Below, one piece after another: positions 36,224-64,000 of a stretch of DNA of 64,000 bases. The notes beneath the pieces were generated by a model. The model was not told the DNA's origin. It saw only the letters and a list, made by a program, of their open reading frames with translations, and made no database searches. Numbering within the stretch: position 1 is the first letter of the stretch; every line of letters starts with the position of its first letter. The stretch lies in the NCBI GenBank assembly GCA_044892525.1, contig CM097888.1:39804001-39868000 (forward strand), written 5' to 3'. The translations under genes and the position numbers were made by a program. The DNA is from Schmidtea polychroa. Lineage: Eukaryota.

Positions 36224-39200
36224 ATGCTTGGAAACCAGAGTTATGTCGAATTTTTCGCCAGATGTGATCAAAGTTCTGAAATAATTAACCTGAAAATTCC
36301 TTTTAATTCTCACTTTGATGATGTACTTAAGTGTCTACAGAAAGCTTTTAATAAAGAAGAGATTTCTTATTTTGAATATCTTGATGAAGATGATGATAAT
36401 GTAGTTGTCAGCTGTGAAGAAGGACTACAATCTGTATTTTCATATTATTCAGATATTATTAAAGATTCCAGTGATCTCGAAGAAATCCCTAAACCGCTGC
36501 AAGTTTGTGTTAAAACTAACACATCTGAATCAAGTGTACTTTTAGCCGAAAGCCCGAATTTGACCATATCAATTGACTATCATATGTTCCCCAATGAAAA
36601 AGATTATAATTCTAACAATAGCTCGATAAGTCACAGTGGTTCTATTAGCGGTAGTGGTGGAGTTTTCATATCTACTTCAGCTGATGAACGAGCATATCAA
36701 TTAACTAATGGGGATTTTAATTCAATTTCACCAATATCAGATGACAATTATGACAAAACACGTAAGTCCTATTATTTTANNNNNNNNNNNNNNNNNNNNN
36801 NNNNNNNNNNNNNNNNNNNNNNNNNNNNNNNNNNNNNNNNNNNNNNNNNNNNNNNNNNNNNNNNNNNNNNNNNNNNNNNNNNNNNNNNNNNNNNNNNNNN
36901 NNNNNNNNNNNNNNNNNNNNNNNNNNNNNNNNNNNNNNNNNNNNNNNNNNNNNNNNNNNNNNNNNNNNNNNNNNNNNNNNNNNNNNNNNNNNNNNNNNNN
37001 NNNNNNNNNNNNNNNNNNNNNNNNNNNNNNNNNNNNNNNNNNNNNNNNNNAAATTTTTGACCAGATTTGATTTTAAATGTTTCATTTATTTAAGATTTTA
37101 AACTAACTGAAATTTAAGTAAATTTTTAATTTAAATCTTTCTTTTTCTTATCTTTCAATGACGCATTCGAAATGTTTCTAATCGTTCTGAAATGCTTTTC
37201 TATTACTCCTTTTTGCACTGTGATGACTTGATCTCATACTACACCAACACATTGCATTATGAAGGAAGTTTTCTTTATTGATCCGAACTCACTTATAAGG
37301 TATTTAGTACAAAGAAATTTACTGCAAATATAGTTTTGTCCAATAGATAATCTATTGATATAATTATTCATTGGTTATATCTCATCGGTAACATGAGGTA
37401 GAAACAAATAAGCACCTGTTCCAAATTAAGCTCTATGATGAATGGAAAGTTTATCTTAAATGATGTTTTATGTATACACTTCCTAAAAACATTTCCTAAC
37501 TCATTTCCTAAAAGCGCGATATCTAATTTCCTAAAAGCGCGATACCTCATTTCCTAAAAGCGCGATATCTCATTTCCTAAAAGCGCGATATCTCATTTCC
37601 TAAAAGCGCGATATCTCATTTCCTAAAAGCGCGATATCTCATTTCCTAAAAGCGCGATATCTCATTTCCTAAAAGCGCGATATCTCATTTCCTAAAAGCG
37701 CGATATCTCATTTCCTAAAAGCGCGATATCTCATTTCCTAAAAGCGCGATATCTCATTTCCTAAAAGCGCGATATCTCATTTCCTAAAAGCGCGATATCT
37801 CATTTCCTAAAAGCGCGATATCTCATTTCCTAAAAGCGTGATATCTCATTTCCTAAAAGCGTGATATCTCATTTCCTAAAAGCGCGATATCTCATTTCCT
37901 AAAAGCGTGATATCTCATTTCCTAAAAGCGCGATATCTCATTTCCTAAAAGCGCGATATCTCATTTCCTAAAAGCGCGATATCTCATTTCCTAAAAGCGT
38001 GATATCTCATTTCCTAAAGGCGCGATATTTCATTTCCTAAAAGCGTGATATCTCATTTCCTAAAAGCGCGATATCTCATTTCCTGAAAGCGCGATATCTC
38101 ATTTCCTAAAAGCGCGATATCTCATTTCCTAAGAGGGCGATATCCCATTTCCTAAAAGCGCGATATCCCATTTCCTAAAAGCGCGATACCTCATTTCCTA
38201 AAAGCGGGATATCTCATTTCCTAAAAGCGTGATATCTCAGTTTTCAATTTTTTCACTATAGGGACTTCGGTAAAAAGACATACGAATCTAATAAGATTAT
38301 TCAAAATAATGACACATGCCTTCTTCTTTTATCTAGATCAGTGGTACGCAAACTTTTTACCTCCCGGCACAAAATAGAAAAAAAAGTCAAGGCACAAATA
38401 GAAAGAATGTATCTTTTATATAGAATTTTTTTAATAAAATGAAATTACATGTATATATTTTATTTAATGGGATGAGTGCGCTTGTTTTTTGTCGCAAATA
38501 AATTTTATACGTGGTTCGATTTTTGTTAAACAAACTCGCAGCTCATCATCCAACATTAGCAATCGCTCTCTTTTTAGATTTAATCTCTGTGAGTGCAGAG
38601 AATCCGAATTCGCACAGATATGAGGATCCAAATGGCAGCAGAGATTTGATGGCTTTTAAACTTAAATCACGATATTGACTTTTTACGAAAATCCAAAATT
38701 CTGGCAAGTCCTTCTAAGCAAGCGCAGCTTTCAAAACTACATCATTTTTCAATTCAATGAGTTTTTCTTCTTCTGCCAAAGACAGAGACACATCATTGTG
38801 GCATATGAATGGAAGTATCAAGCGACGGAAAATATTTGGAGAAAGATGAAAAAAGATTTTGCAATGTTTCATAGATTTGGTTCATTATTTTGCTCTGATT
38901 TTGAGAAGCATGGACACCTGGCAAAAATTCAATGTTATTTTTTTTGTCTGTCTGATCCAAAATTGCAGTTTTTCATCGAATGCTTTGAGTTTTCCTGTAA
39001 TTGTGATCATATTTTCTTTCTCACCTTGCAGACTTAAATTAAGTAAGTTCAATTTTTCAAATAAATCGTTCAGAAAAATAACTTCCAGCCACCATATATC
39101 GCTTTCAAGAAACTCGAACTTACCACCTTCAGTAGAAAAATAGGAAATAATCTCAGTTTGCAAACTGACAACACGAGCAAGCACTTTCCCCTTCGAGAGC

Positions 39201-42200
39201 CATCGGACTTCTGTATGAAATAGTAAACTTTTGTGATCTGAATCCATTGCCTCACATAAAGACGTAAATATTCTTGTCCGAAGCGGATTTGACTTGATGT
39301 AGTTCACTACTTTGATTACTTCATTCATTGTTTGCAGAAGCTGAGTGGGCAGAGCTTTTGAAAGTAAAACTTCTCGATGAATCATACAGTGCACAATTTT
39401 TACTTGTGGATTGCGATGCAAAACATGAGCAACAAAGCCTTTGTTCCGTCCTTGCATTGCTGGAGCTCCGTCAGTGCAGACACTAACACAGTTATCCCAT
39501 TGGAGTCCCTTTGATTGAACTTTTTGATTGACCAGCTCAAAAACATCTTTTCCCGTGGTATTTTTCGTCAGCTCACTACAGAAGAAAAATTGGTTTTTAA
39601 TTTTTCCTTCTCTGATTAATCGTAGAAACGCAATCAACTGAGCTTTGCTACTGATATCAGTCGATTCGTCAATTTGAAGCGCCCAGAGTTTTTCAAGTTC
39701 ATCTGTATTTGCTACGAAATACTCATGAATCTGATTGTCAACGTCCTGCGACATGTGTTGAATTCTTCGAGAAATTGTATCAGCTGACAACGGAATTTGC
39801 TTAATTTTTTCGACTGCTTGATGGTCGAACATTAATTCAACGGCAATTTCTAACGCTGGCAAAATAATCTTTTCGTCATCAGTATGTGACTTTTTATTTT
39901 TGCATAAAAGTTGAGCAATTTTATAGCTAGAAATTTGGGCTTTTTTAGGGATCGAACAAAATACCTTAATTTGTTTTGACTGCCTCTGTAAATTAGTTCG
40001 GAAGTGGTCAAAGTACATTTTTGGTTTATTCTTCATTTCTGGATGTTTTGTTTCCAAATGTTGATGAAGCTTACTTGGTACCATTGATTCATTCACAAGA
40101 GTTTTTGAGCAAATTAAGCAAAAAGGAAGAGAACTATCATTTTCTGATGGAATAAACCCAATTTCAATATAGTCGTCTTGATATTTGTGCTTTGCCAAAC
40201 TGTTTGATTTCGCATTTGATTTTGGATTTGGATTTTGGACATTTTCATGTCCAGTTTTCTGAGTTCTTGATACAAATTTATCCATAAGGATGCCTTGTAT
40301 TAAAATAAATTAGTAATGGCTGTTAAGAAAAATATATTAAATTACTTGCTTGGAATAACAACAATTTAGATCACTACCAATTAATTAATAACCTTTGTCA
40401 AATCGAAGAAATATCTGGAATTTTTATCAGTTACTAATAATAATCGATAATAATAATAATGTTTTTATTAAATAACTTCTATTCACTTACGATACAAACA
40501 AAATAATGAGTTCTACAAATTTCCCCACTATAAATTTTGAAATTTTTTACTAATGGCTTTATTCCAATCATAGTATTAAAAATTTCAAAGAAAAATAGCA
40601 AGCCTACTATGGAAAATTTAAAACAAATTTGAATTTTCCATAAAAAATTCAATTAAATAACGGTCACTTTTATCAATTATTGTTACTTCTTGACAGTGTT
40701 TTGTTTTTATTAAATAACTACAAAAAAAATATTTTCGTACTAAATATTTAAGCATTAGCGGCACATTTTAAATTCTTTTACGGCACACTAATATGCCGCG
40801 GCACATAGTTTGCGTACCACTGGTCTAGATGGTAAAATAGATGTTTTATGAGTAATTTGAACATTATATTTACTGTTTTTATATAATTCTTATATTATTC
40901 TACTTATATTATTCTACTAAAGAATATTGGGACCTTTTTTGTTGATAAATTAAGAAAACTTCTTTTTTTAATGGGCTTATGTGTGATGGAATAATAGTAG
41001 TACAACCTTCTATGAAAAAAAGATAAAATTAATGAGAAATTATTCGCCTCTATGACACTGTCCTATGCTGATTAGGAAACAAATAATAAAAACGTAAAAT
41101 TAAATTTTAAATCTTAATAGCCTCTCTGTCAATTGAAAACAAAATTTTGCGATCATTCAAAAATATCGGGTATTATTTCGATTGTTTTTGTACACAAACA
41201 TATATTATTAACTGATATATTGAACAATTGAATGTATGTGTCGTAGTTATAACTTATTAGGTAGTTTTCATTTCAAATACTATTTTATAATATATAATTT
41301 TTAAGTAACTAAATATAACTAGAATTGATGTAATATATTAAATCAAATTTCAAAGCTAATATGAAAAGCAAAATTTGGAATTTTTTCGAAATAAACACTG
41401 TTAATCAATCTTATGCAAACTGCTTGATCTGCATGATGAAGCTGAAACATGGCAGCAAGAATCCAAGGTCGTATGCGTTCAAAGCATCCGGAAAAACACA
41501 CCGAATATATGCAAAAATGCAAAAATTAAAAATTAAGGCCAGTGATACTAATATTAGGCTTGCTGAGGATGCAAAAAGGCCTAAGCAGCAAAATCTCGAT
41601 GCCTATATTGAAAGAACGCGTCCCTTTGAAATGCTTATAACAATTTGAATTACTGGGATGATAGTCTTGGATGCGCAGCCATTTTAGGTTGTAAATGATA
41701 TTGAATTTCGACGGGTTGTGTACGAATTAGAGCCTCGGTATAACATTCCACATCAAACACATTTTTCAAGAGTAGTGATACCAGATATTTTTGTAGCAGT
41801 AAAAACAAAGATTCAAAATATAGTAAAGCATTCGAGTTATATATGTTTTACTTCTGATATGTGGACAGCAACTAATAATATGAATTCATTTCTATCTTTA
41901 ACAGCGCATTGGATCAACGAGAAATGGGAGCGAAAATTCGTTGTATTAGCAATGCGAAGTGTTAACCGTCGAACTGATCGCTAATACAATATTGAGTTTG
42001 CTCGATGAATTTAAAATTGATGTGAAAATGCGTGGTTTGCTTGTAAGGGATAATGAATCCAGCATGATCAAGGCGGCACCCCGACAAAAGAGAGCCGACA
42101 TAAGACTACCTAAGAAGCCCACAACTTAGCTGTATAAATGTAACTATAAAGAAACGTTTTATTAGTTTGAACGTCCTTTCATTTTGTTACATTTCATTTC

Positions 42201-48400: not shown

Positions 48401-49105
48401 TTCGATGCTTTGGTAACCAATGTGAAGATTTGAGATTTATAGAATGGAGTTTTCATTATTGTTATTTTCATAATAAAATGCGACAGATTTTCTATTATTA
48501 AACTTTTTGTTTCAATTATTGATTATTAATTAACCTTTTATTATTATTGTTAATATTATTTATTTTTATTGATTATTATACACCCAACTCTTTTTTTACA
48601 CGGTAGATACGTTCGAACGAAAATCGTGTAAAAAAGACATGTTAACCATAGTAAAATTGAGGATGTGTTCTACAATTATAGCAAACCGTGTAAAATAGAA
48701 AAAGGAACCATTAGTTCTTAAAAACCGTGCAAAAAAATAGTAAATCTTGAAACCATATTATATAAGTTTTAGAAAATATAATCCATACAAGTTTTTATTA
48801 AAAATAGATAATAATAGTAATTTTTGTCCATATGTAAAAAACAAATAAAATTTTAGTTCATAAATACATATAAATTAAATTCAAATTGGAAATATAAGTC
48901 TTATTTAGCAACTAATATTTATTATCACTACTTTATAATAAGCGTACACGACTAAAATTTCTTTACTCACATAGGTGTACCAAATCTGATATTGGTTTTC
49001 TTATGATAAAATCTGTTATAAGCTGCTGGGTTTTTGCTTTTTTAGCTTCCTTATAAAGTTCTTGATAGCCAGCCATACAAACCTGTAAATTCCGTTGGAA
49101 TTTTA

Positions 49106-49624
49106 ATGCACGCTCATTTTAATTCATTCATTCCTGCTGCTGGTGTAATTGAGGCATTCGAAGACCTCGTTGAAAATGAATGTTTACCCGAAGAAGCGAT
49201 AGTAATTGCCAATTATTTCGAAGATAATTATATAGGGAGAAGACAAAGACGTAGACGACAATTACCTATTTTCCCCATAGAACTAAGGAATGTTTATAAG
49301 GAACGCTTAATGACCAACGGCGCACAAGCGACGACGTTGAGGGATGGCACAGGGGATTTCATGAAACGTGTCACATTTTTTCCGAACCCCTACAAATTCA
49401 TAGAACCCTTGAAGAAACATCAAGCATTACAGGATATGGAAATCATACAATTGATTGCCAGTAATCCCACAAGGCGTAACAAAAAATATGCAACCATTTC
49501 TAAGCGTATTAAAAATATTGTTGAAGATTACGAAATTCGTAATAAAATTGATTATCTTCAAGGTATTATTAAAAGCCATTTTGTTTTATACTGTTATTAT
49601 AATCAAAATAAAATAATAAGATAA
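49106..49624 (+). mobile_element. Mutator/MULE transposase C-terminal fragment
   Basis: EAFEDL..IANYFEDNYIGRRQRRRRQLPIFPIELRNVY..FIEPLKKHQ..KKY..RIKNIVEDY..IDYLQGI is the typical animal MULE C-terminus. Confidence 0.8.
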
Positions 49625-50281: not shown

Positions 50282-51281
50282 AGTCGGTTCTCTCTCTGAC
50301 TCCTCGTGTTCTTAATCAAACAATTAAGTCGAAACCCAGCACAGAATAACTTTATTTAATTTCAATCAAATTATAATTTGTCACTATATTTGCACATTTT
50401 GCTCAAAATAATTATCACTCGATAAGGTAGATAACCCCAGGGCAATCACCTTTTCTAATACAAGAACAAAACTTTTTTCGATTTACTATTGTTGGGCTAA
50501 AACGTGGAGTTTCGAAAACTGGAGCGAATAGAAAAGTAATCCTTGAAAAATAAACGAAATAAAATAAAAATATAAAGTACCATAAAATTCTCACTAATAA
50601 ATCAAAAAAGAACAATAAAATATCAATAAGAGAATAAGAATAAGTAAAACAAACTAAATAAAACCCAATAAACCCCTTAAGATTTGGAAATAAAGCGATT
50701 TAGGACCCAGCAGATGAAATAGAATAGAATAAGTAAAAAAGTGACAACAAATAAACGAGAAATTTAAGAAATAAATAAAAATAAAACTATCTGTAAGTCT
50801 AATTAAAACAAAAAATTATATTACAATAAAGTAGCAATAAATCCACAGGAAAAATAGGAGGAAAATAATAAAAATAAGAAAATAAATAAAATAATAATAA
50901 GAAATAAGTTAAGTCATTAAAATCTAATATATTATAATAAAAAAAAACATAAAAATAATAATAAATAGTAAAAATACAAACAAGTCGTGTCCTGATTGGA
51001 CGAAAAATAATATATAAGGAACGGAAAATATCTGTAGAGTACCACTTTTAAAAAATATTCTACAGGTAAACTTTGGTTCGTTATTAGACCACTTTTAAAA
51101 AATATTCTACAGACTTGACAGATTTCGGAACCTTTAATTAGCCTACAGCGAACTAGTTCAGAGATTTCCAAACCAAGCCGAGGAAGGAATATATAGAGGC
51201 CAAATTTCAAATCCATTCGGGAAAAATCTTAAATTCAACCGATTTAACTTCAGTTTTCGAAACTCAAGGTATGCCTCGACA
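50282..51281 (-). mobile_element. Putative LTR (about 1 kb)
   Basis: Minus strand starts TGTCG and ends CGAC(T), with AATAAA near the 3' end. An internal 25-bp direct repeat lies at 51041-51065/51088-51112. The 3' part resembles 35400-35500. No clear PPT or TSD. Confidence 0.35.
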
Positions 51282-51369
51282 GTTGTTGTATTTTATGGTT
51301 ATTAGTTTGATTTCGTTAATTATTATAAATATAATAAAACAATTTCATATAATAAATTTATTTAAATGA

Positions 51370-52852
51370 AAAGTTGCCTTTCTTCATGGTACCGGCGACT
51401 GTACCATCTGAGAACTCCCAGTATGATGTGGACGAGTTGGGATTGCACTGCAGTAGAGGACACCACCGTGAAAAGGTTGGTATGCATAAGAAATCACGAA
51501 CATGCTGAAAGGAGAATGTGATATTTGTAGAGAGTGATATTTGTCATATTAGAGATCCTCCAAGGAGACGATGAGATTTCGATTACGTAGGATGAGCAAC
51601 ATCATACTTGGAGTCCAAATGGTATGGTCGCCGGGTAAATTTTCTTTATGCATTTTTCTATCATTCAGTTTGATTATTGTATTGTTGATTTGATTGAATG
51701 GAAACGAGTTGATTGGTCCCTCATGACGGTGCAAGGAGGTGGCAGCAATGAATGCCTTCTTGGGTGTGTCGTGAGGGGTGAAGAAAACTCAGTAGGTGGA
51801 ACATCCAGTTAATAAATGACAGTTCCTTCATCAAGCGCGATCGTCTATAGAGCGTACCATCGGTTCGTTTAGTCAAATCGAGATGTCCAGTAGTTGTAGA
51901 GATGATTTAAATTCCGAATGCAGACAATTCAGAGCGATATAGGCAGTGACGTTCGTACAGATTCGATAATAATCCACATAGATAGGAGAAAAATTCTTTT
52001 CCGTGATATTCAGCCGGTCGATCGACGTAGTTAGGAAAGAGCAGTGTTGACCATAGATTGCAAGTAAATCCAACGATTTTTCGGTGACGCTCTGTGTTTG
52101 CAAGGTTCTGTCTGATTTGCGCCGTCACGACGTTAGCGGTTGCATCCATCGTCGATGTACTCTTACGATTTAATTGTCGTCCGTGAGTCGCCAAGGCCAG
52201 TGATAAAAAATCTCTCGCTGACAGGGAAGTAAACATCTTGCAGGGAAATTATCAAAATTCTTACTTCGAGCTCGCAGACAGTAGTTGTCAACGATAACGA
52301 AATCAGTTGATTTACATTAGCCTGCGTAGAGTTAGTCGACAGGAGATATCTGATAATGTCCTGGAGAAAGAGATAACATGTTAGTTTTTCTGGGAAAATG
52401 TCAAATGGATAAGCTGATAGTCATTGATCTGAATTAATATCGTAAAAGGAAATTAGATGATAATGTTGAGCTTACCCAATAATCTACGAAATTGTCGCCC
52501 ACTCAGATTGATAAATCTGATTTTCCGATTCACCTACGGCTGCTTATTTGAGGAATCTATTACGCAACCACTATTATTCCGACTTGAGCATGCACATACC
52601 CACGCACCACAGTCAAGTCTACTTAGGGCAGTTTAAAGTAAATACACAATTTTTGGTGATGTAATAGCGGCATGATAATGTAAACTTTGCTAGAACAGCG
52701 AGACAATAAGATGAAGTAAAGGAATGGATTTCCCCTACACAACCCGATATATAATAATTACTCACAACAGCATAAACCATCATTCGCGGTGATAGCCAAC
52801 ATACAGTTACAGATACCACCAGGAGTAATGACACACTTACACATTCAATCAT
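51370..52852 (-). pseudogene. Decayed ORF with signal-peptide-like N-terminus, possibly an envelope/glycoprotein relic
   Basis: GC-richer than the flanks. Hydrophobic start MIECVSVSLLLVVSVTVC, Cys-containing fragments, many stops and frameshifts. No family motif recognised with certainty. Confidence 0.3.
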
Positions 52853-53422
52853 AATGCATAATCACAAGTGAACGTTTTCCATGACGACGATTTCGACGCG
52901 TTATTTGAATTAATTAGATGTAGATTTAGAGCAGAATTTTCAACTGATTACGTGATCAATTCCATAATTTTGAACGAGATAAAAACATAAACAATCTATT
53001 CCGTCGCCGTGAATTATTTCTCTGTAATTTTAGGCACGCCTACATCGACGGATTGCCATAATGATATCGGCAAATCTTTAAATAAAATATACTAAGGAGA
53101 ACATGGTTGAAGGGAATAAAGTAAAAGACGAGTTTTACCTGGGGATGGTCCCATCCGAAAATAAACCCAAAGGGCGAGGTTTATGTAGAGAGAATTTTGT
53201 GTACGAATCCCCGTTTCCTTTTCTTAATTTACACGAATCCGGTGAAGAGATTTGAATGTTTGCAACTGAATGACTGCGTATAGAGATGGATGAAGAAGTG
53301 TGTGGGTCATCGTTGGGTGGTATGCTTGATAAACTCCAAAGCCACGCTCAAAAATTTGATTATTCTTTTTCTCACTGATAGAGGTTTTCCCGAGTGAATA
53401 TAAACAATGATTGATTTTCTAG

Positions 53423-54184
53423 ATGGCTACATCGTCCAACAACGCCAAAGGACTTCACCCGTGTTTTTCTTGTGCGGACAAGAACGCGGATATCGCCCAA
53501 CTGCATTTATATATCGGGGCTCTCAAAAAGAGAATTGATCTCTATGAAGGAACGTGGTTCTCCCCGCCACAAATGAAAGAGGAACGCAAGAAAATTCTCC
53601 GATTAGAGCATTGCAGGGACAGCCTGCTAGAGGAAAGTCGTTGCCAGCGGCTCACCATCAAAGCGCAGTCAGAAGCCCTCCATAAGGTATATACGGAGGC
53701 AGAATTGGCTAAGCGGGTGCGAGAATTCCCCGTTCTGGATGGGATGAATATCTTTCCCCTTCACCACCAGTCTTCTACATCTTCCAGCTCGAACTGTCTG
53801 GGGCACGGCTCACAACTGCCGCCCATTCCAGCCCCGGTGTTGTCAAGTCACCAGCCAAAGACAGGTGGACCTACCGATTCCATCTTAGCTTCAACCTCGG
53901 TAGCACCAATCGACATCACGAACGCAGGAAACCCCCAGACTACCCGCAAACGGAAACGGCCAACTCGAGCCGAGAAGAACCAAAAACGCCGAGCTGCGAT
54001 GACAGCACTCGAGACGTCCTTATCAGCGGCGAAATCAAAAATCCAAGAGATAACGTCCTCCCATTCAATCCCCTCGAAGGAAGTTTTCCGCATCGTTCCA
54101 GCTGAGGGCATCAAGTACATTGTAGATAGCCGATTACCGGTCGACATAGATGAGATACTGGCCGATGGAGATAACTTTGTTTAA
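53423..54184 (+). CDS. Uncharacterised 253-aa protein: CxxC, coiled coil, Ser/Pro-rich linker, basic NLS-like stretch
   Basis: Intact intronless ORF containing CFSC and RKRKRPTRAEKNQKRR. AATAAA follows at ~54315. Confidence 0.6.
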   Translation: MATSSNNAKGLHPCFSCADKNADIAQLHLYIGALKKRIDLYEGTWFSPPQMKEERKKILRLEHCRDSLLEESRCQRLTIKAQSEALHKVYTEAELAKRVREFPVLDGMNIFPLHHQSSTSSSSNCLGHGSQLPPIPAPVLSSHQPKTGGPTDSILASTSVAPIDITNAGNPQTTRKRKRPTRAEKNQKRRAAMTALETSLSAAKSKIQEITSSHSIPSKEVFRIVPAEGIKYIVDSRLPVDIDEILADGDNFV

Positions 54185-55187
54185 CGTGACGTACAATTGA
54201 GCTTGATTTCCTCTCCATTGAGTTGTAAATTACCTTGTGAATTATGCTAATGTTATATATTTTTGACTGCTGTTGATCTGTTAGTGGTAATGATATTTTT
54301 ATTGTTTCAGTGTCAATAAAATTTTCTGTTTGTTTTCAGTTTTGTCGAGCTTTCATATATTTGTTTGTGCAATTAGAGTAGATGAGATAACGCTGCGGAA
54401 TGAAAGTAATTAGAGTTGAAAGTCGTTCCTTTGGACCAGGATCGGACCAAGTGACACGCATGTATGTGGGTAAGTCCTTCTAAGGCACCGTAGGACCCGA
54501 ACCGAGAAAGGGTTAGGAGTAGTCCTAAGGCAGGGGCTCACCTGCTAACCTTTTCCGACCCGTGTGAGCAGCACCAACATGGAACATCACCATGGGCTCA
54601 TATGTGGGAATATGCAATCAGTCATTTGGAGTATGTGTAGAAAATGTATAACGGAGCCATGATGCTTGATAGGTGTGATGGAAAGGCATGTATAATTTTC
54701 TTTTCTTCTCCACATACGCCAACATGATTTTTGGGGGCTCAGCCGGGATTCATATATTGATTTGTTTGATTGTCTAATTTTGTGTTATGATGTGTTAGAT
54801 TAACAATTTAATTAATTATGATAAAAATGGAATCGGGGCTGAAACGAATTATAGTGCAATAAAATGATACGAACTGTCTGAGTTTGAAATAGAGCATGTG
54901 GTGAATGAAACGAACCTAAAGGAGTTGGAATGAATGTGATGAAGTATGATGAGAAAGGAAAAACGGGAATTGGTTATTGAGATTAATTTTAACTGGTTAA
55001 AATAAAAAGGGGGACGAAAGAAAGTAAGTGATTAAAGCAAAAAGATGAAAGGGGAATTTCAAAGATCGAATAAAATACAAAAGTTAAAACACTAAAGCAT
55101 AAAAGTCAACGAATATTAAATACAAACATAATAATATTAATTTTAATATCAGTAGCAACAAAATAATAACAACACATTCATTTAGAT

Positions 55188-55667
55188 ATGTCAGAAGCTA
55201 GACAACATCTACGACAGCTAAGCCGGTTCGTCGAAATAGAAAATGATTCAATAAAAACATTAAGGGAAAAACTGAAACAAATAGAACTGCTAGAACAACA
55301 AAGCCACAACGCACCGCTGATATCCAAACAAAACTTTCTAACCGACAGATTAGGATCAACAAATACCGATACCGACTTGTCTATTCATTACCAATGGTTT
55401 CAGCAACGTCTCGACGACCCCGCTCTGAACATCGAATATGTGAGGATACGCGAACGAGTCAAAACTCTGTCTCAGCGGATACGAACATCAATAGTAGAGA
55501 AAGCAGCGGCCTTGAGAACTTGTAACATTTGCAAGATGCGACCTGTCAAAATTCTGATTCTACCTTGTGGGCACCTTAGCCATTGTGACGAATGCGCCGC
55601 CAGTTTAATCCGTTGTTCTATGTGCACATGTGTAATAAAAGAGAAGCACACAATCTACTTCAGTTAG
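55188..55667 (+). CDS. Coiled-coil + C-terminal IAP/MDM-type RING finger protein (putative E3 ligase), no BIR domain
   Basis: CNICKMRPVKILILPCGHLSHCDECAASLIRCSMCTCVIKEKHTIYFS* has the spacing and extreme C-terminal hydrophobic tail of IAP-class RINGs. Confidence 0.82.
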   Translation: MSEARQHLRQLSRFVEIENDSIKTLREKLKQIELLEQQSHNAPLISKQNFLTDRLGSTNTDTDLSIHYQWFQQRLDDPALNIEYVRIRERVKTLSQRIRTSIVEKAAALRTCNICKMRPVKILILPCGHLSHCDECAASLIRCSMCTCVIKEKHTIYFS

Positions 55668-56484: not shown

Positions 56485-57062
56485 AGGCCTAAAGTAATAG
56501 TGAGATAGCATTCAAGCTACAAGTTGATAACATTTAAATTACTAGTGAGATGGAATATTAAAGCTAGCTAGAAGCAAATTGAGTTTGAAATATGGAATTC
56601 GAATTTAGAAAGGATTAAACGAGCTCGTGGGAGGTAATAATGAAATTTTTTTTCAGTGAGAAAGAGAAACTGAAAAGGAAAATGAATTAAAGAGATAATG
56701 AAAATAAAGAATAAGTGAGAATAAATGATGAGTAAAAGAGGAAGGTGATTAATTAATTAAAAGGGATCCCAGATAAGTAGACAAAGTTCTACAGAATTTT
56801 TTTTTTGGTTTAAACCGGTTAAACGAATTTTGTTTTGGTTACAGAGTAGAACCAAATAAGGGGAAACAGAGATGAAAGATTAAGTAAAATAGCGGAACCG
56901 CGTAAAAGGATTAAGAAAATATGGGAGGTAATAAGCAGTAACTGACAACGACCTATCGATATTATAAATGCTAACTATAGATAATTTATACGACTATATA
57001 GATAATTGTTACTACCCCAAATAGATAATTTAAAATCGACGAAAAATATGGGTTGATGGGTA

Positions 57063-60000
57063 ATGAGCGAAGTCACCAACTACTTCAAGATCGCAAAATT
57101 AAGAACATCACCGTACCATCCACAAACTAATGGTATGACAGAAAGATTCAATGGAACACTGATTCAAATGTTATCAAATTATGTCGATCGTCATCAACGA
57201 GACTGGGATGAATATATAAAATTATGTCTAATGGCTTACAGAATGTCGATTCACGCGTCCACAAAGATGAGTCCGTTCAAGTTGATGTACGGCAGAGAAT
57301 GCAATATGCCAATGGATTTAGAATATCAGCCACCAATATCACAATACATGGAAATAGACGATTATGTAACCAAGTTCAAGGAAAGAATGCAGGAAATCTG
57401 GGAAACTGCAGGATTGAATATAAAATTTTATCAAGAAAGTTACAAAGAGTTACATGATAGAAAGAAAAACGTCAAACAGCATACGTTTCAAACAGGCGAT
57501 TGGGTGATGATTGAAACACCAGAATTAATTCCAGGAACCACCAAAAAATTACAACGAAACGGTAAAGGGCCGTATGAGATTCTATTCGTCGGAGAAACTA
57601 ATGTAAGAGTACGATTAGTGAACAACCCTTTTACAAGACCAATATACGTAAATGTTGCACGATGTAAGCCAATTCCGAAAACCGCCACCAGTCAGCCAGA
57701 AGGACGTACACTAACGACAAGATCACAAACGTATAGAATAAACATGTTACAGCAGATAAACGAACCAACAGGTAATCGATTAGGGTTACAACCATCAGAA
57801 GCCGAGAAAATCATAAAGGAAGTAACTGTTAAAATGCCCGGATGGGCAGAAGACAGATTAGATTTTGAGATATTGGGAGGTCTGCTAACAATGATCGAAA
57901 ATTATGCAAACCGAGAAAGAACACACCCATTACTCAGGGTAGTAAAAAGTCAATGGCCTATATTATTTACGATCACAGACCACTATGGAGATACACCGCT
58001 GCACAAGCTTTTAAAGGTGGGTAGTAACGAACAGATATTAGAAACGATTGAAGCATTTCGCGACTGTAACATTTCGACGGATCAAGGAAACAACCAAGGT
58101 TACACCCCACTAATGATAGCAGCCAATCGGGATAAAGCTAAAGATATTATCATCGCATTACTCGAAACGGGGTCAAAGATAACCACACAAGACCACAACC
58201 AGAAAAATGCACTACATCATGCAATCGAAGGGAAAAGTACGGAAGCCTTCATAATCTTAGTAGATCTATTATCATATGAGGATAATAGAGAGATAGGAAA
58301 CATGTATGACGGGCTATTAACTGCAATCAAAGAGAAATTAATAACAATTGCTGGATTACTAATTGCATGGAGAAACCCGATCAAAAACGATTACATGGTA
58401 GATATAAACGAAACATTTACCAAAGGAGAAAACACCTTGATGAGAGAAGCGATGAGAGGACATCACCTATTCGAGATTCCAAATCAACTACTACAACGTG
58501 GCATAAAGTTCTCAAATCACAAAGACGAACAACTAATCAGAAAACGAATTACCAACTTCGAAAAAGCTATATCTCAATTTACCGATAAAGTACAAGTAAA
58601 ATTTTGGGAAACCGTGAGCGTTTTACATATGATGGAAACTATGAACAACATTCGAGAAAACTACCTAAGTATTATTCAAGTTCTAACGGCAGAGGAACGC
58701 ATTAACAATTCGAACAAGAAAAAGATAAAAATGAAGAAAGTAAAAGCAAGAGAGTCTGAGGAACAAGTCGATCAACCAATGACCGATATAGCAACAACAA
58801 GTAAACCAAAGACAATAAACTCCGACCAAGAGATAGTAGTACGTAAGGCTAAAGAAGTATTCTTTGAAGAAATGCAAGATCTATCCGATGAAGCGATACT
58901 AGCAAAAATAACCAAAACAGTACACACCTACGCAAGAGATCAGACCACAAATCTAGACATAGGAAAAATAAAAACATTTATACCACTAGCATTCACCTTA
59001 CCAACAAAAGACTCAAGAACACCATTACAACAAGCCATTTTAGCAGCAAAAGAAAACAGAGCAATAACCATCATAAGAATCCTCAGAGACTTCGGAGAAG
59101 AATCTAATGCAAAAAATGAACAAGGAGAAACAGCAATGATGTATGCAGCCATAACAAATATACACCCGAAAACATTACATATACTACATCGATCGGGATC
59201 AAGACTGGATGAAATATCAAACGAAGGAAATTCTACCATGGATTGGGCAACGATACAACCAAACTTGGAAATGATTAGATTCATTTGTAAAAATGCTACA
59301 AGAACCGAGGTAGAAAATATCTGTAAAAACACGTCACAGTTCCAATGGAACACGATACGGATGAACTTAGAAGCCATGAAGTTATTGCTAACATGGAGAA
59401 TACCACAAAGCAATAAATATGCAATAAATATAAATGAGTTCTACGAAAACGGAGAAAATGCTATGGTTAAAAATACACTAACAAAAGGAGGAACTCCGAA
59501 AATCATAATGATCGTATTAAACAGGGAAGATCTCAAATTCACGCAAAATCTAAACGAACAAAAGCGAATCGGAAAACATCGCCGTATACAATTGAGAGAA
59601 CTGGTAAAAGAATGGAATAGAAAGAGACATGTAGCAACAGGCAGAAAGGAGTTCGAATTCGAAACAAAATTAGCAAGAAACAGAGTGCTAACGGCATACC
59701 GCAGATTGTTGAATGATATAAATGTCGAGGACGACATTTTAAACGATAGCGGGGGAGATAAAGACGATAAAGACGATAAAGACGACGATAATAATGAAAA
59801 AGGTCGAAACGGGAATAAAGAGAAAGAGAAATCAGAGGAGAATAATCAAGAAAATAACGACGCGAGTAGGAAAAAAGAGGAAAATAACCCGAGAAACCGA
59901 ATGAAGCAAGAAGAAAAGACGAATAGTGGAAAACAGAGGGTATGCCTACTTTTTACCAACAAAGAAATGGAGACAAATATGATGATAATGATACTCGTAC

Positions 60001-60980
60001 TAACAATGGTGGAAATGATAACAGCCCAGGGAGGAATGAGAACGATAAAAGAAGCCAAAGAAACGGAAAATAAGGACAACAAAGAGGAAGAACTAAAACA
60101 AGAAAAGAAAAAACAAGTACAAGAGCAGCAATGGGATTTAAAAGAAGAATGGGATTTAAAAGAAAGGTGTATATTAGGAAGATGTATGTCTAGAGCTTAT
60201 CAGAGACTAGTGTTAAAAAATGAAGATGCAGAACCAATAACGGAAGTAAGAATACAAGAAGCATACCGAAATCGAGACGGAAAGAGAATAACGAAAGTCA
60301 AAGGGAAGGAGGTACACCTGGGAAAAGGAGGTGAGGTAGTGATAACGCAACTCCAGTCAAGAAAAGAACACAAAGTCTGCATTTCAAGATTAGGACCGGG
60401 TGAAGACTGTCTACAATATGTAATACAGCAACAACCTCCAAAAGAATACACAATATGCATCTGGAGAAAAGATACAGCGAGAGAATGTCGACGATACCCT
60501 GGGAAAAGAGGGAAGAAAAGAAAAATCAATGATGAAAAAGATGAGCAAGGGAAACGCAAGAAAAACAGTGAGAAACATCAAGACAATTATGTATCCGAGG
60601 AGGAGATGGAGAAAATACAAAAAATGGCAAAGGAAGGTATGAACGAGGAAATAGCAAGAATACGAGGAATGATGAAAGGAAATGACAAAGACGGTAAGCT
60701 AAAAAGCACAGAAGCAATATCAACACTAACGAGCAAGGAAAAAGCGGAAATTATAAGCGTAAAACAGATGATGTGGATCAGCGGCATAATAATAACAGGG
60801 GCCTTTTTAATCATAACGGGGGGGACAATAAAAATAATCAAAGATAGACGGCATCGCGGAGAACTAGAAATGGCCAGAATAAGAAATTTTCAACATCGTG
60901 TAAAACGACCAAGTAATATCAAGCAGGAACAGTGGGTGGAGGCCTGGAATGCTCAGCGCCCTCCAAGCTCACGTATATAG
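57063..60980 (+). CDS. 1305-aa fusion: Ty3/Gypsy integrase C-terminal half + GPY/F module, two ankyrin-repeat modules, acidic/charged linker, internal signal-like segment, Cys-containing region, TM helix, short tail
   Basis: KLRTSPYHPQTNGMTERFNGTL..DWDEY..AYR..H.STKMSPFKLMYGRE and FQTGDWV..KKL..KGPYEI (57063-~57670). Ankyrins GDTPLH, GYTPLMIAA, QKNALHHAI, SRTPLQQAI, GETAMMYAA. Hydrophobic MMIMILVLTMVEMITA (~59979-60026) and WISGIIITGAFLIITGGTIKII (~60774-60839). Confidence 0.88.
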   Translation: MSEVTNYFKIAKLRTSPYHPQTNGMTERFNGTLIQMLSNYVDRHQRDWDEYIKLCLMAYRMSIHASTKMSPFKLMYGRECNMPMDLEYQPPISQYMEIDDYVTKFKERMQEIWETAGLNIKFYQESYKELHDRKKNVKQHTFQTGDWVMIETPELIPGTTKKLQRNGKGPYEILFVGETNVRVRLVNNPFTRPIYVNVARCKPIPKTATSQPEGRTLTTRSQTYRINMLQQINEPTGNRLGLQPSEAEKIIKEVTVKMPGWAEDRLDFEILGGLLTMIENYANRERTHPLLRVVKSQWPILFTITDHYGDTPLHKLLKVGSNEQILETIEAFRDCNISTDQGNNQGYTPLMIAANRDKAKDIIIALLETGSKITTQDHNQKNALHHAIEGKSTEAFIILVDLLSYEDNREIGNMYDGLLTAIKEKLITIAGLLIAWRNPIKNDYMVDINETFTKGENTLMREAMRGHHLFEIPNQLLQRGIKFSNHKDEQLIRKRITNFEKAISQFTDKVQVKFWETVSVLHMMETMNNIRENYLSIIQVLTAEERINNSNKKKIKMKKVKARESEEQVDQPMTDIATTSKPKTINSDQEIVVRKAKEVFFEEMQDLSDEAILAKITKTVHTYARDQTTNLDIGKIKTFIPLAFTLPTKDSRTPLQQAILAAKENRAITIIRILRDFGEESNAKNEQGETAMMYAAITNIHPKTLHILHRSGSRLDEISNEGNSTMDWATIQPNLEMIRFICKNATRTEVENICKNTSQFQWNTIRMNLEAMKLLLTWRIPQSNKYAININEFYENGENAMVKNTLTKGGTPKIIMIVLNREDLKFTQNLNEQKRIGKHRRIQLRELVKEWNRKRHVATGRKEFEFETKLARNRVLTAYRRLLNDINVEDDILNDSGGDKDDKDDKDDDNNEKGRNGNKEKEKSEENNQENNDASRKKEENNPRNRMKQEEKTNSGKQRVCLLFTNKEMETNMMIMILVLTMVEMITAQGGMRTIKEAKETENKDNKEEELKQEKKKQVQEQQWDLKEEWDLKERCILGRCMSRAYQRLVLKNEDAEPITEVRIQEAYRNRDGKRITKVKGKEVHLGKGGEVVITQLQSRKEHKVCISRLGPGEDCLQYVIQQQPPKEYTICIWRKDTARECRRYPGKRGKKRKINDEKDEQGKRKKNSEKHQDNYVSEEEMEKIQKMAKEGMNEEIARIRGMMKGNDKDGKLKSTEAISTLTSKEKAEIISVKQMMWISGIIITGAFLIITGGTIKIIKDRRHRGELEMARIRNFQHRVKRPSNIKQEQWVEAWNAQRPPSSRI

Positions 60981-61148
60981 AAAGGATTATGACTGTATAT
61001 AGATTGTAAAAAGTAAGTAGGTAATATTTATTTATATAACAGTATTCTATATTTTTATATAAGCGCGGTATCAATAGTACATAATGATGGGGATAATTAA
61101 TATGAACATAAAATTAGATAAGGATTGAAAAGTATATATAAATTAAGA

Positions 61149-61508
61149 ATGGAGCGAATAGGCGAGGAAGTAAATCACAGTACAACAACCGAGGAGATGT
61201 GGAAACAACAATGTGCAATGTTAACTCAAGTGATTTCGAATTTACAGGAACAAGGACTCGCTGTACAAAGAAGCTTAGTCGAAAGTTTAAATAAAGGCTT
61301 CAGTTATGTAAGAATAATCGAAGACCAACGAATGAAAATTGAGCAAATGCAGCGAGAGATAGACCGAATATCACGATACAGCCAGGTGCAAGAAGAGGAG
61401 TTAATAAGAATCGCGGAAGAGATGGAGCGAGAGGAGATAGAAGACTGGTCAGAATGGTTAACCAGCAGGGAAGAGGGCGGACAAGAGGCCGACTCTTCCA
61501 GCCAATAA
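61149..61508 (+). CDS. Small acidic coiled-coil protein
   Basis: Intact ORF (first ATG 61149; track start 61125 is TTG) with heptad-like Q/E/R-rich sequence. AATAAA overlaps the stop. Confidence 0.55.
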   Translation: MERIGEEVNHSTTTEEMWKQQCAMLTQVISNLQEQGLAVQRSLVESLNKGFSYVRIIEDQRMKIEQMQREIDRISRYSQVQEEELIRIAEEMEREEIEDWSEWLTSREEGGQEADSSSQ

Positions 61509-61597
61509 ATATAACCTAAAATAGCAATGTAAATAACTGTAAATAAAAATTCGAAACTGTACCAGTAACGAATATATGTATATATATAATTATAGAA

Positions 61598-62986
61598 ATG
61601 GATAAGCGACAACGAGAAGAATTCAAAGAAATTGTTGAACAAGTCAGAAAGTCCACCACAATTCGAATACACAACCATGTAACGTGTGGAATATGCAAGA
61701 GCTTATTAAGAGAACCTCACCAAACCAGATGTGGATGCAGAATGTGCAGAGAATGTGTAGAGGAGATAATAAAGAAGGGACCACAATGGTGCCCAGTATG
61801 CAAAGAAACAATGATAACAAGTTTGGGAGATACAAACGAAGATAAAGCAGCTGTAAAAGATATGTTGAATGCAAACCTTGGATGCAAAAACACCCCATGT
61901 AATTGGCGAGGAGTGATATGGGAAGTGAGGCAACATATGGAGCAATGTGAATATAAAATCAGTCAATGCAAACGTTGTCAAGAAGAGATTAAAGTCAATG
62001 AAGAAGCAGAACATCAAAGTCGATGCGAAGAAAGACTGGAGAAATGTGAGTATTGCGGAGAAACCGACACCTGGAAAAAACTAATCAGTCAACATCACAA
62101 CATACAAGAGGAGAAAGTGTGCGCAGAATTCAGAGGAGAATGCCCCAATAAATGCGATAAACCCGGAGTAACAAAACTCGCTCAACATCTAAAAGAATGT
62201 GAAAGGAAAAAGATAACGTGTGTGCTAGGAAAATGGGGAGGTCCGAAACAATTACACCGAGGGGAATTACCCCAACATCTAGCAGAAAATGTATCAACAC
62301 ACGCGGAAATATGGTCAACGGTATTACAAGAAAACGAAAGAAAAACCGAAAACTTAGAAAGAGAAATAGTCTCGCTAAAAGCGTTGGTAAAAGAACTATT
62401 GGAAGAAAAGGAAGCATTTGAAGAGGCGAGAACAAGTACAAAGATACAGACAGATCTAGTAGAAACTAGCAACATTATGGTGAAAGAACTACATCAAAAA
62501 GTAAGCGAATTAAACCTCAACGAATTAATACCTACGGCTCCATACATATGGAAAATAACGGGAGTAAAAGAGAAGATGCAGAGAGCGAGAAATGGAAAGG
62601 ATACAACATTACTAAGTCCAGCATTCTACTCATGGAAAAACGGGTATAAAATGAAAATGAAAGCATACCCCAATGGGGATGGAAGTGCATACGGAACGCA
62701 TTTCTCAGTATTCTTCTTGATGTGCAAAGGGCCATACGACGAGTTAATAGAATGGCCATTCAAAGCAAAAATAGACCTCGCAATGATGAACTATCAAAGT
62801 ATACATGAACAGAGTTTCCATACAGCGGGAAACCTCGTATGTTACCAAAGGCCCTTGGAAGAAGAAGGACCAGCAACTGGAGCACCGAATTTCATCCTAC
62901 AGCGGAAAGTAGAAGACATGACGAAAAGCGACACTATATACATAAAAATAGCGGTGAGGCGAGACGGGAAGAGTAGGACTGAGTAG
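61598..62986 (+). CDS. TRAF: Intronless TRAF2/3/5-like protein (RING + TRAF zinc fingers + coiled coil + MATH)
   Basis: RING CGICKSLLREPHQTRCGCRMCRECV..CPVC; zinc fingers C.N..CNWRG..HMEQCEY..CEER..CEYC; MATH YIWKI..SPAFYS..GYKM..YPNGDG..GTHFSVFF..GPYDELIEWPF..QRP. Confidence 0.93.
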   Translation: MDKRQREEFKEIVEQVRKSTTIRIHNHVTCGICKSLLREPHQTRCGCRMCRECVEEIIKKGPQWCPVCKETMITSLGDTNEDKAAVKDMLNANLGCKNTPCNWRGVIWEVRQHMEQCEYKISQCKRCQEEIKVNEEAEHQSRCEERLEKCEYCGETDTWKKLISQHHNIQEEKVCAEFRGECPNKCDKPGVTKLAQHLKECERKKITCVLGKWGGPKQLHRGELPQHLAENVSTHAEIWSTVLQENERKTENLEREIVSLKALVKELLEEKEAFEEARTSTKIQTDLVETSNIMVKELHQKVSELNLNELIPTAPYIWKITGVKEKMQRARNGKDTTLLSPAFYSWKNGYKMKMKAYPNGDGSAYGTHFSVFFLMCKGPYDELIEWPFKAKIDLAMMNYQSIHEQSFHTAGNLVCYQRPLEEEGPATGAPNFILQRKVEDMTKSDTIYIKIAVRRDGKSRTE

Positions 62987-63206
62987 AGAGACGAATAATT
63001 TTGTATATACTAATTGTAAATATCGGCGTATATATCCAGTAAAATATTATATAGTAGTGTAGAAAAATTCCCCCCAAATCTACCAAAGGTAAACTTAAGC
63101 GAAAAACTCCTAAAACAACTCCTATAACGAATTATAAAAATAAATAAAAAATAAGCCAAATATAAGCGTACAACGTTGAGTTAATGATATCGTTATTTAG
63201 ACCAAG

Positions 63207-64000
63207 ATGACACAAGAAAGAACTGAAGCCCCAAACCATGAAACCAAAGTCAATAAAATCCATAAGGGAAAATGGGTCAAAGTAATGTTACAATTGACGA
63301 ACCAGACCCGCAACCACCTCGAAGAGGCCAGGGAATACGAGAATAACAAATATCAGTGGTTAGTAAACAATTTAAGAGCCGAAGCAGAAGCATGCAAAAG
63401 AGCCTCTAAGTGGGCATCATTGGAAAACACTCGCCAAGAAGCGCACAGCCACTATTTAAAACAGTTAGTGCAGGAAGCACGGAAACGATTGACGGACGAA
63501 AACACAAAACGAGAAGCAGAAAAACAAAAGGAAGGAAGGAAAATGAATCACCTAGTGGCAGAAGCCCGAAACTGGAAGCGGCAGAACAAAGAGATGAAAA
63601 AAGAAATGAAAGAATTGCCTATGAGATTAGAATACGAAAGCGAACAAGGCAAATGGGAGGAAAATCTGGTCATAAGAGAAGAACTGAAACGGCTCAGAAA
63701 GATCGCGGCCCGAAGCCAAACATGGCAGACCAAAGCCATGGAATTTGAAAGACATCTAGCCATGAAAATCTCCATAAGGGAACACGAGAATGCCGCAATG
63801 GAAGAACTGATACTTCAACAGTCAGGACGACTCGTGGAACTGGTGAATAAGGTCGCAGAACTAGAACGAGATGTCAACGGATACCAAGGAGCTCTGGAGC
63901 AGAGAAATATGGTACTGGCGGGGAAAAACAAAAAGTTAGAAAACGAAAGGAAAATGTATAACGAAAATCTCAAAAATCTGGAGATAGAGATCAAGAAATG
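63207..64000 (+). CDS. Long coiled-coil ORF, open to the end of the window (missing from the ORF track because it has no stop)
   Basis: I translated MTQERTEAPNHETKVNKIHKGKWVKVMLQL...ENLKNLEIEIKK from the ATG at 63207 with no stop codon (~264 codons). E/K/R-rich. Confidence 0.7.
   Translation, partial: MTQERTEAPNHETKVNKIHKGKWVKVMLQLTNQTRNHLEEAREYENNKYQWLVNNLRAEAEACKRASKWASLENTRQEAHSHYLKQLVQEARKRLTDENTKREAEKQKEGRKMNHLVAEARNWKRQNKEMKKEMKELPMRLEYESEQGKWEENLVIREELKRLRKIAARSQTWQTKAMEFERHLAMKISIREHENAAMEELILQQSGRLVELVNKVAELERDVNGYQGALEQRNMVLAGKNKKLENERKMYNENLKNLEIEIKK

Follow-up and report, generated by a model that had tools for sequence, protein, structure and literature searches.

The window, a stretch of 64,000 nucleotides from Schmidtea polychroa, contains a copy of a Burro-type Ty3/gypsy LTR element that is 30.7 kb at full length and that carries an intron-free accessory gene for a 462-amino-acid TRAF protein (61598..62986) with no stop in its translation. 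All stranded features given below lie on the + strand. The TRAF gene is flanked by LTRs of identical type with a 4-bp target duplication. The left target-site duplication (50486..50489) directly precedes a 5′ LTR of 4,235 bp with TG...CA ends (50490..54724); the paired 3′ LTR (L021:2043-6276) and the repeat of the duplication beyond it lie outside the window. The LTR contains a 253-aa ORF with no match in Pfam (53423..54184), in which a basic stretch was noted. It is followed by a primer-binding-site-like 18-mer recognized from its sequence (54732..54749), which may resemble a tRNA-Pro primer-binding site, and by a 160-aa ORF with a C3HC4_3 RING at its C terminus according to Pfam (55188..55667). 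This second RING gene sits between the 5′ LTR and gag, and AG directly precedes the ATG in both it and the LTR ORF. Further downstream, a remnant of the polyprotein ORF (57057..60980) encodes the C-terminal part of the integrase, ankyrin repeats, and two hydrophobic segments near its end. This end (59979-60980) comprises a signal-like hydrophobic stretch, a Cys-rich segment, a second hydrophobic stretch, and a short tail, a layout that resembles a type I membrane protein. A small helical accessory ORF of 119 aa (61149..61508), which has a small ORF as its counterpart at the equivalent place in a sister family, precedes the TRAF gene, and the next accessory ORF (63207..64000), which is coiled-coil-like and has no Pfam match, continues past the window edge. 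Host sequence in the window also includes a 474-aa ORF with a Spin-doc zinc finger (38885-40309), a transposase-like fragment recognized by eye (49046-49624), and a ~69-bp tandem array (37477-38242).

The copy in the window has lost ~10.6 kb of internal sequence at a junction with 4-bp microhomology (57061..57064). The loss removed gag, env, protease, RT, RNase H, and the front of the integrase, and the copy that remains is 19.8 kb long and non-autonomous. Splicing of an RNA was considered as the origin of this deletion and was ruled out, because the would-be donor bases are retained, the junction carries microhomology, and it is unique to the window copy, with one match genome-wide. In the LTR-LTR comparison, the two LTRs were 2 mismatches and 1 gap apart over 4,235 bp, and the window copy is young. 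At the per-generation mutation rate of 1.31e-8 given for a related species in PMC10899757, this divergence corresponds very roughly to ~18,000 generations.

The genome searched (781 Mb, with four large contigs) contains at least 92 copies of the TRAF protein at 91-100% identity (92 of 1,864 candidates were scored), and 84 of these 92 have no stops. Two other copies of the element measure 30.7 kb, have LTRs of 4.2 kb, and are bordered by target duplications of 4 bp. In full copies, a polyprotein of ~4,700 codons, which was read in separate pieces, encodes gag, a Monjiviricetes-type fusion protein, protease, RT, RNase H, integrase, and ankyrin repeats. Maverick/Polinton-type polymerase ORFs were seen near several element copies (L031, L038, L158). 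A 35-kb sister family (L105-L109, G000:C1:21.53-21.56 Mb) has a MATH domain inside a 4,791-codon frame as well as a separate downstream TRAF with a C-G-C RING, which is positioned after the polyprotein and a small ORF and is followed by a BIR-RING gene. This second TRAF is 32% identical to that of the window family and occupies the equivalent position. The two TRAF-type modules of the sister family, the polyprotein MATH and the full TRAF, possibly represent two captures; the groove residues of the polyprotein MATH are close to those of host TRAFs.

Burro/GYPSM1 elements are giant gypsy-like LTR elements of planarians (PMC6431247, relaying Jurka 2007 and Grohme 2018). The same source notes MATH_TRAF_C in Burro-1 to -4, with an accessory-ORF location in a Dugesia element, and reports BIR, ankyrin, and BCL2-like cargo. 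The window family resembles these elements in its length of >30 kb, multi-kb LTRs, target duplication, TRAF-domain cargo, and accessory ORFs. It also has the Burro layout, in which env lies between gag and pol in a single polyprotein, together with ankyrin repeats. Burro1/GYPSM1 proper differs in having a polyprotein MATH and a BIR, neither of which was found in the window family by Pfam. The 35-kb sister family fits Burro1 better because of its in-frame MATH and BIR-RING gene, and the window family may be Burro-2, -3, or -4. A BCL2-like motif had no match in either family (Pfam profiles only). Both the TRAF gene, as cargo, and the element that carries it belong to kinds that have been described before. 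As far as the available text of PMC6431247 goes, however, what is described is a MATH domain, whereas here a whole RING-bearing TRAF lies downstream of the polyprotein. Among the papers retrieved by literature searches, none mentions a complete TRAF of a Burro element in its title or abstract; the primary Burro papers, figures, and supplements may already show one.

The TRAF protein has an N-terminal RING, TRAF-type zinc fingers, and a coiled coil followed by MATH/TRAF-C, so that the complete intronless TRAF described in the first-pass annotation was recovered in full. The RING (residues 30-68, 61685..61801, Pfam RING E 9.5e-5) is of an all-Cys, C4C4 type with the ligand pattern C30-x2-C33...C45-G-C47-x2-C50-x2-C53...C65-x2-C68. 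The N-terminal 145 aa align to solved TRAF6/TRAF5 RING-zinc-finger chains, in which Cys47 (codon 61736-61738) stands opposite the His of CGHRFC in TRAF5/6. This agrees with the His-to-Cys exchange noted earlier. A canonical C3HC4 RING has His as its fourth zinc ligand; here, Cys47 is present in 40/40 copies. The five TRAF-type zinc fingers (residues 96-235, 61883..62302) fall under the Pfam zf-TRAF threshold yet align to the TRAF5/6 chains with an E value of 8.6e-16; the fifth finger lacks one ligand in the window copy alone among the 40 copies. An AlphaFold model built from a 52-row alignment (mean pLDDT 91.9) has a long helix at residues 232-305, which corresponds to the coiled coil (62291..62512). 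It is followed by the MATH/TRAF-C domain (residues 316-453, 62543..62956, Pfam E 1.7e-24). The best Foldseek matches of the model were the TRAF domains of TRAF2/3. Among vertebrate proteins, TRAF2/3 are closest to the element MATH, and TRAF6/5 give the best alignment for the RING and zinc fingers. Vertebrate TRAF2/3/5/6 differ from the element protein in their RING His, in an identity of about 30%, and in a serine-rich receptor-binding strand that the element protein has not kept. Its partner-binding MATH strand has diverged from those of host and human TRAFs and also differs between element families. In one similarity search, 17 relatives were found at 24-29% identity, all of them distant, and none that was close. 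The segment after the RING is only two residues longer than in TRAF6 and does not have the longer insertion of TRAF2-like rows. A Lys directly after the last RING ligand has a role in activating E2-ubiquitin, and Lys69 holds this place in 40/40 copies.

Codon use in the TRAF gene resembles that of the polyprotein. At four-fold sites, the frequencies of A and T are 0.59 and 0.09 in the TRAF gene and 0.55-0.58 and 0.09-0.12 in the polyprotein, compared to 0.33-0.37 and 0.32-0.52 in six other ORFs of the window, one of which contains masked bases. The A-rich skew that the TRAF had been said to share with the integrase-bearing frame is thus confirmed. Comparison of 39 copies with the window copy gave dN/dS of 0.08-0.20 at dS of up to 0.42 within a 40-copy set that was picked by protein score and whose members are non-independent. 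Constraint extended to every domain, with values of 0.17 for the RING, 0.15 for the zinc fingers, 0.18 for the coiled coil, and 0.12 for MATH. A second sample comprised 78 copies picked by a non-coding anchor. The full-length TRAF frame was open in 55 of these and broken in 23; 60 of the 78 also belong to the list obtained by protein search, 5 of them having stops, and the remaining 18 are all broken. In 13 of these 18 copies, pN/pS was 0.13-0.23, a range that leaves out five truncated or interrupted copies, with which the pooled ratio is 0.33; the ankyrin region gave 0.12 and the integrase core 0.02. A TRAF subfamily that is 68% identical differs by dN of 0.19 at dS of about 1.9, where synonymous sites are near saturation.

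These values bear on the idea that the TRAF is a neutral passenger that is intact merely through the youth of its copies. LTRs only 2 mismatches in 4,234 apart and the 23 broken copies among the 78 would fit such a passenger, but dN/dS of about 0.1 at dS of up to 0.42 and dN of 0.19 at dS of about 1.9 between subfamilies contradict it, the ratios being far below 1, and we regard it as very improbable. The element TRAF is kept under purifying selection. Polyprotein-like codons, the subfamily dS, and the 32%-identical sister TRAF at the equivalent position also sustain the earlier proposal of capture from the host followed by long residence in the element.

The same data can be set against a decoy role, in which the element TRAF would join host TRAF trimers or bind their partners and so block signaling, the RING serving for folding or dimer contacts, not catalysis. 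In the predicted structure, both the coiled coil and the fold of the MATH domain are preserved, while the partner-binding strand has diverged from host TRAFs. The RING of vertebrate TRAF2, which binds Ubc13 poorly, offers a parallel. However, a pure decoy could do without a RING, which is indeed absent from the MATH-only insert of the sister polyprotein, whereas the constraint on the element RING matches that on the other domains, and all eight ligand positions and Lys69 are retained in nearly all of the 40 copies. A decoy role is on balance unlikely.

The relationship of the element TRAF to host TRAFs was assessed at 60 loci, which combine the best 30 of 87 and the best 30 of 150 family-search matches. 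A RING was visible at 48 of these loci and was C-x-C in 48/48; the 48 comprise two old element copies, one duplicate, and 45 distinct non-element loci. At the other 12 loci, no RING was seen inside the flank. The single C-x-H (C-G-H) RING in the wider fetch belongs to a TRAF4-like gene. An expanded TRAF family has been described in the planarian host (PMC6109357). All-Cys RINGs were observed across this expanded family, and the last Cys pair is also irregular in several genes (L039-L098, L112-L117, L159-L169). Among 150 outside relatives, a RING was seen in 91, of which 77 have His and 14 have Cys. Domain order and the C-x-C RING are thus common to the element TRAF and the planarian TRAF/MATH family (PMC6109357, PMC7586133, PMC8807557). 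The element gene differs from planarian host TRAFs in being A-rich, T-poor, and multi-copy, with a diverged MATH groove. In the titles and abstracts retrieved by literature searches, a C-x-C RING in planarian TRAFs was not found; figures and supplements may hold it.

Lack of introns is likewise shared with the host. RING to MATH lies in one exon in eight host TRAFs, five of which have an in-frame Met. Three have no Met before the RING (L114:4357-5718, L117:2192-3652, L117:4273-5700) and so require either a short exon further upstream or a spliced leader. The eight genes have host-like codon use, with four-fold T of 0.26-0.41, and the donor host TRAF group may already have been intron-free. The view, taken in the first-pass annotation, that intron absence and the His-to-Cys RING set the element gene apart is thus not supported. 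The opposite view, that of an ordinary host gene among intronless TRAFs of the same composition, holds insofar as intron-free host TRAFs exist, but fails in that their composition differs and what the element carries is a repeat rather than a syntenic gene.

The three element TRAFs group together in a tree of 46 rows (100/98). They fall within a C-x-C clade of 20 rows (96/95), which also contains host genes and nine outside proteins; one outside row labeled C-type, P0045, has an irregular RING. Support for the closest sister group among host genes is weak (90/76). A tree of the RING finger only places the element clade (95/92) inside the C-x-C clade (95/94). Under a mixture model, the element clade reaches only 93/91, unstarred; composition warnings were flagged on trees, and the shared A-rich composition could attract the element rows. 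The phylogeny thus separates the element genes as a group of their own but places this group within the host C-x-C TRAFs. We also considered whether element TRAFs seeded the tandem expansion of host TRAFs. This is unsupported, since the two-exon host tandem family forms a separate clade (100/100, RING-finger tree).

It could be argued from the fixation of Cys47 in 40/40 copies, and from the His in 77 of the 91 RING-bearing outside relatives, that the His-to-Cys exchange originated within the element and alters E3 activity. The C-x-C pattern in 48/48 RINGs among the 60 TRAF loci of this genome and in 14/91 outside relatives, together with the nesting of element genes in the host C-x-C clade, refutes an origin in the element, and we give this explanation almost no credence. 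Because host RINGs are also C-x-C, a difference in activity between element and host proteins could only stem from other residues. Instead, the 48/48 C-x-C RINGs of the host genome and the nested position of the element clade indicate that the exchange most likely predates one old capture. From the trees and the equivalent position of the two TRAFs, we infer a single capture before the split of the two giant families. Judged from these comparisons, the all-Cys RING is a trait of the host lineage and not an invention of the element.

A route of expression is suggested by the spacers between accessory ORFs, which are 55-220 bp long in both giant families. The 89-bp spacer upstream of the TRAF gene (61509..61597) contains TGTAAATA at 61528 and 61538 and an acceptor-like TAG (61593-61595) before the TRAF ATG. 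This TAG was found in 57 of the 58 copies examined and not found in one. TGTAHATA lies at most 70 bases from the upstream stop in 8/10 spacers (shuffle mean of 0.76; reached in 0/2,000 shuffles), a motif chosen post hoc from the data, and TAG lies at most 9 bases from the next ATG in 8/10 (shuffle mean of 1.48; reached in 0/2,000 shuffles), one spacer with an unclear start codon having been left out. The arrangement was noted at 60981-61148, 61509-61597, and 62987-63206 in the window and in the L028 and L108 spacers. As candidate modes of expression, it suits a common leader that is spliced on, combined with alternative 3′ ends, or the processing of an operon by spliced leaders. Intergenic spacing in flatworm operons peaks near 100 bp (PMC8629364), spliced leaders occur in Schmidtea, and TGTAHATA equals the Pumilio element (PMC5855632). 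In two sister-family copies, an A-run follows a TGTAAA motif 3′ of the coiled-coil ORF (L108:8467-8560, L102:5002-5050), a possible trace of a polyadenylated end.

We consider it more probable than not that the element TRAF is a ubiquitin-ligase adaptor with an active RING and that it tunes stress, cell-death, or immune signaling in the host. Under this model, a TRAF would have been captured once from a host group that already carried the all-Cys RING and then retained by purifying selection. It would be made as its own processed mRNA by means of the AG before the ATG and a 3′-end signal after the stop, and a predicted ligase-active RING with an altered MATH groove would tune host signaling. 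The His-to-Cys exchange is predicted to keep the zinc site without a functional switch. By analogy, ligase activity can go together with an all-Cys RING: CNOT4/Not4, which has E3 activity, uses a C4C4 RING to bind its E2, and the C4C4 RING protein TMEM129 is an active ligase in vitro (PMC4431670, PMC4024746). Both have eight Cys zinc ligands, as does the element RING, but they are unrelated proteins, whereas the element RING has standard TRAF spacing with one ligand exchanged. Knockdown of host TRAFs leads to cell death (PMC7586133, PMC8807557). These all-Cys precedents and knockdown phenotypes, together with Lys69, the lack of a long insertion after the RING, and the diverged MATH strand, are the grounds for favoring a RING-active adaptor over a decoy, a role in the element's own cycle, a RING switch born in the element, or a passenger. 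The repression of Burro transcripts by PIWI (PMC8532177) counts against it. Because the receptor-peptide strand of MATH differs from those of host and human TRAFs, the host partner is not obvious.

A TRAF that serves the element's own cycle, for example by ubiquitinating Gag or adapting the element's membrane protein, would account for its co-inheritance with another RING gene and with a polyprotein that has ankyrin repeats and a membrane-type end, as well as for a MATH groove that differs between element families. The cargo of the sister family, namely, the BIR and, according to PMC6431247, a BCL2-like motif, points instead to control of host death, and we judge a role confined to the element cycle to be quite improbable.

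Returning to the RING-active adaptor, a wider form of it can be put forward tentatively, and we hold it to be possible but doubtful as a whole. Planarian giant retroelements may use a complete captured TRAF with ligase activity in the manner of a viral accessory gene at dozens of loci. It would be expressed on its own mRNA from an operon-like cassette in which a 3′-end/Pumilio-type motif and then a splice acceptor occupy 55-220-bp spacers. Its altered groove would rewire host death or immune signaling, perhaps in stem cells during lapses of PIWI control.

The feature that first drew attention to this gene, its all-Cys RING, loses its singularity, since the expanded TRAF family of the host and related genomes share it. 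There is still good support for a retroelement that keeps a whole host signaling protein, a predicted ligase, under selection. In practical terms, element copies may find their way into both transcript counts for planarian TRAF/MATH genes and the probes used for TRAF RNAi. Burro elements have been proposed to meddle with apoptosis and ubiquitination (PMC6431247), and the TRAF described here provides one defined gene with which that idea becomes testable.
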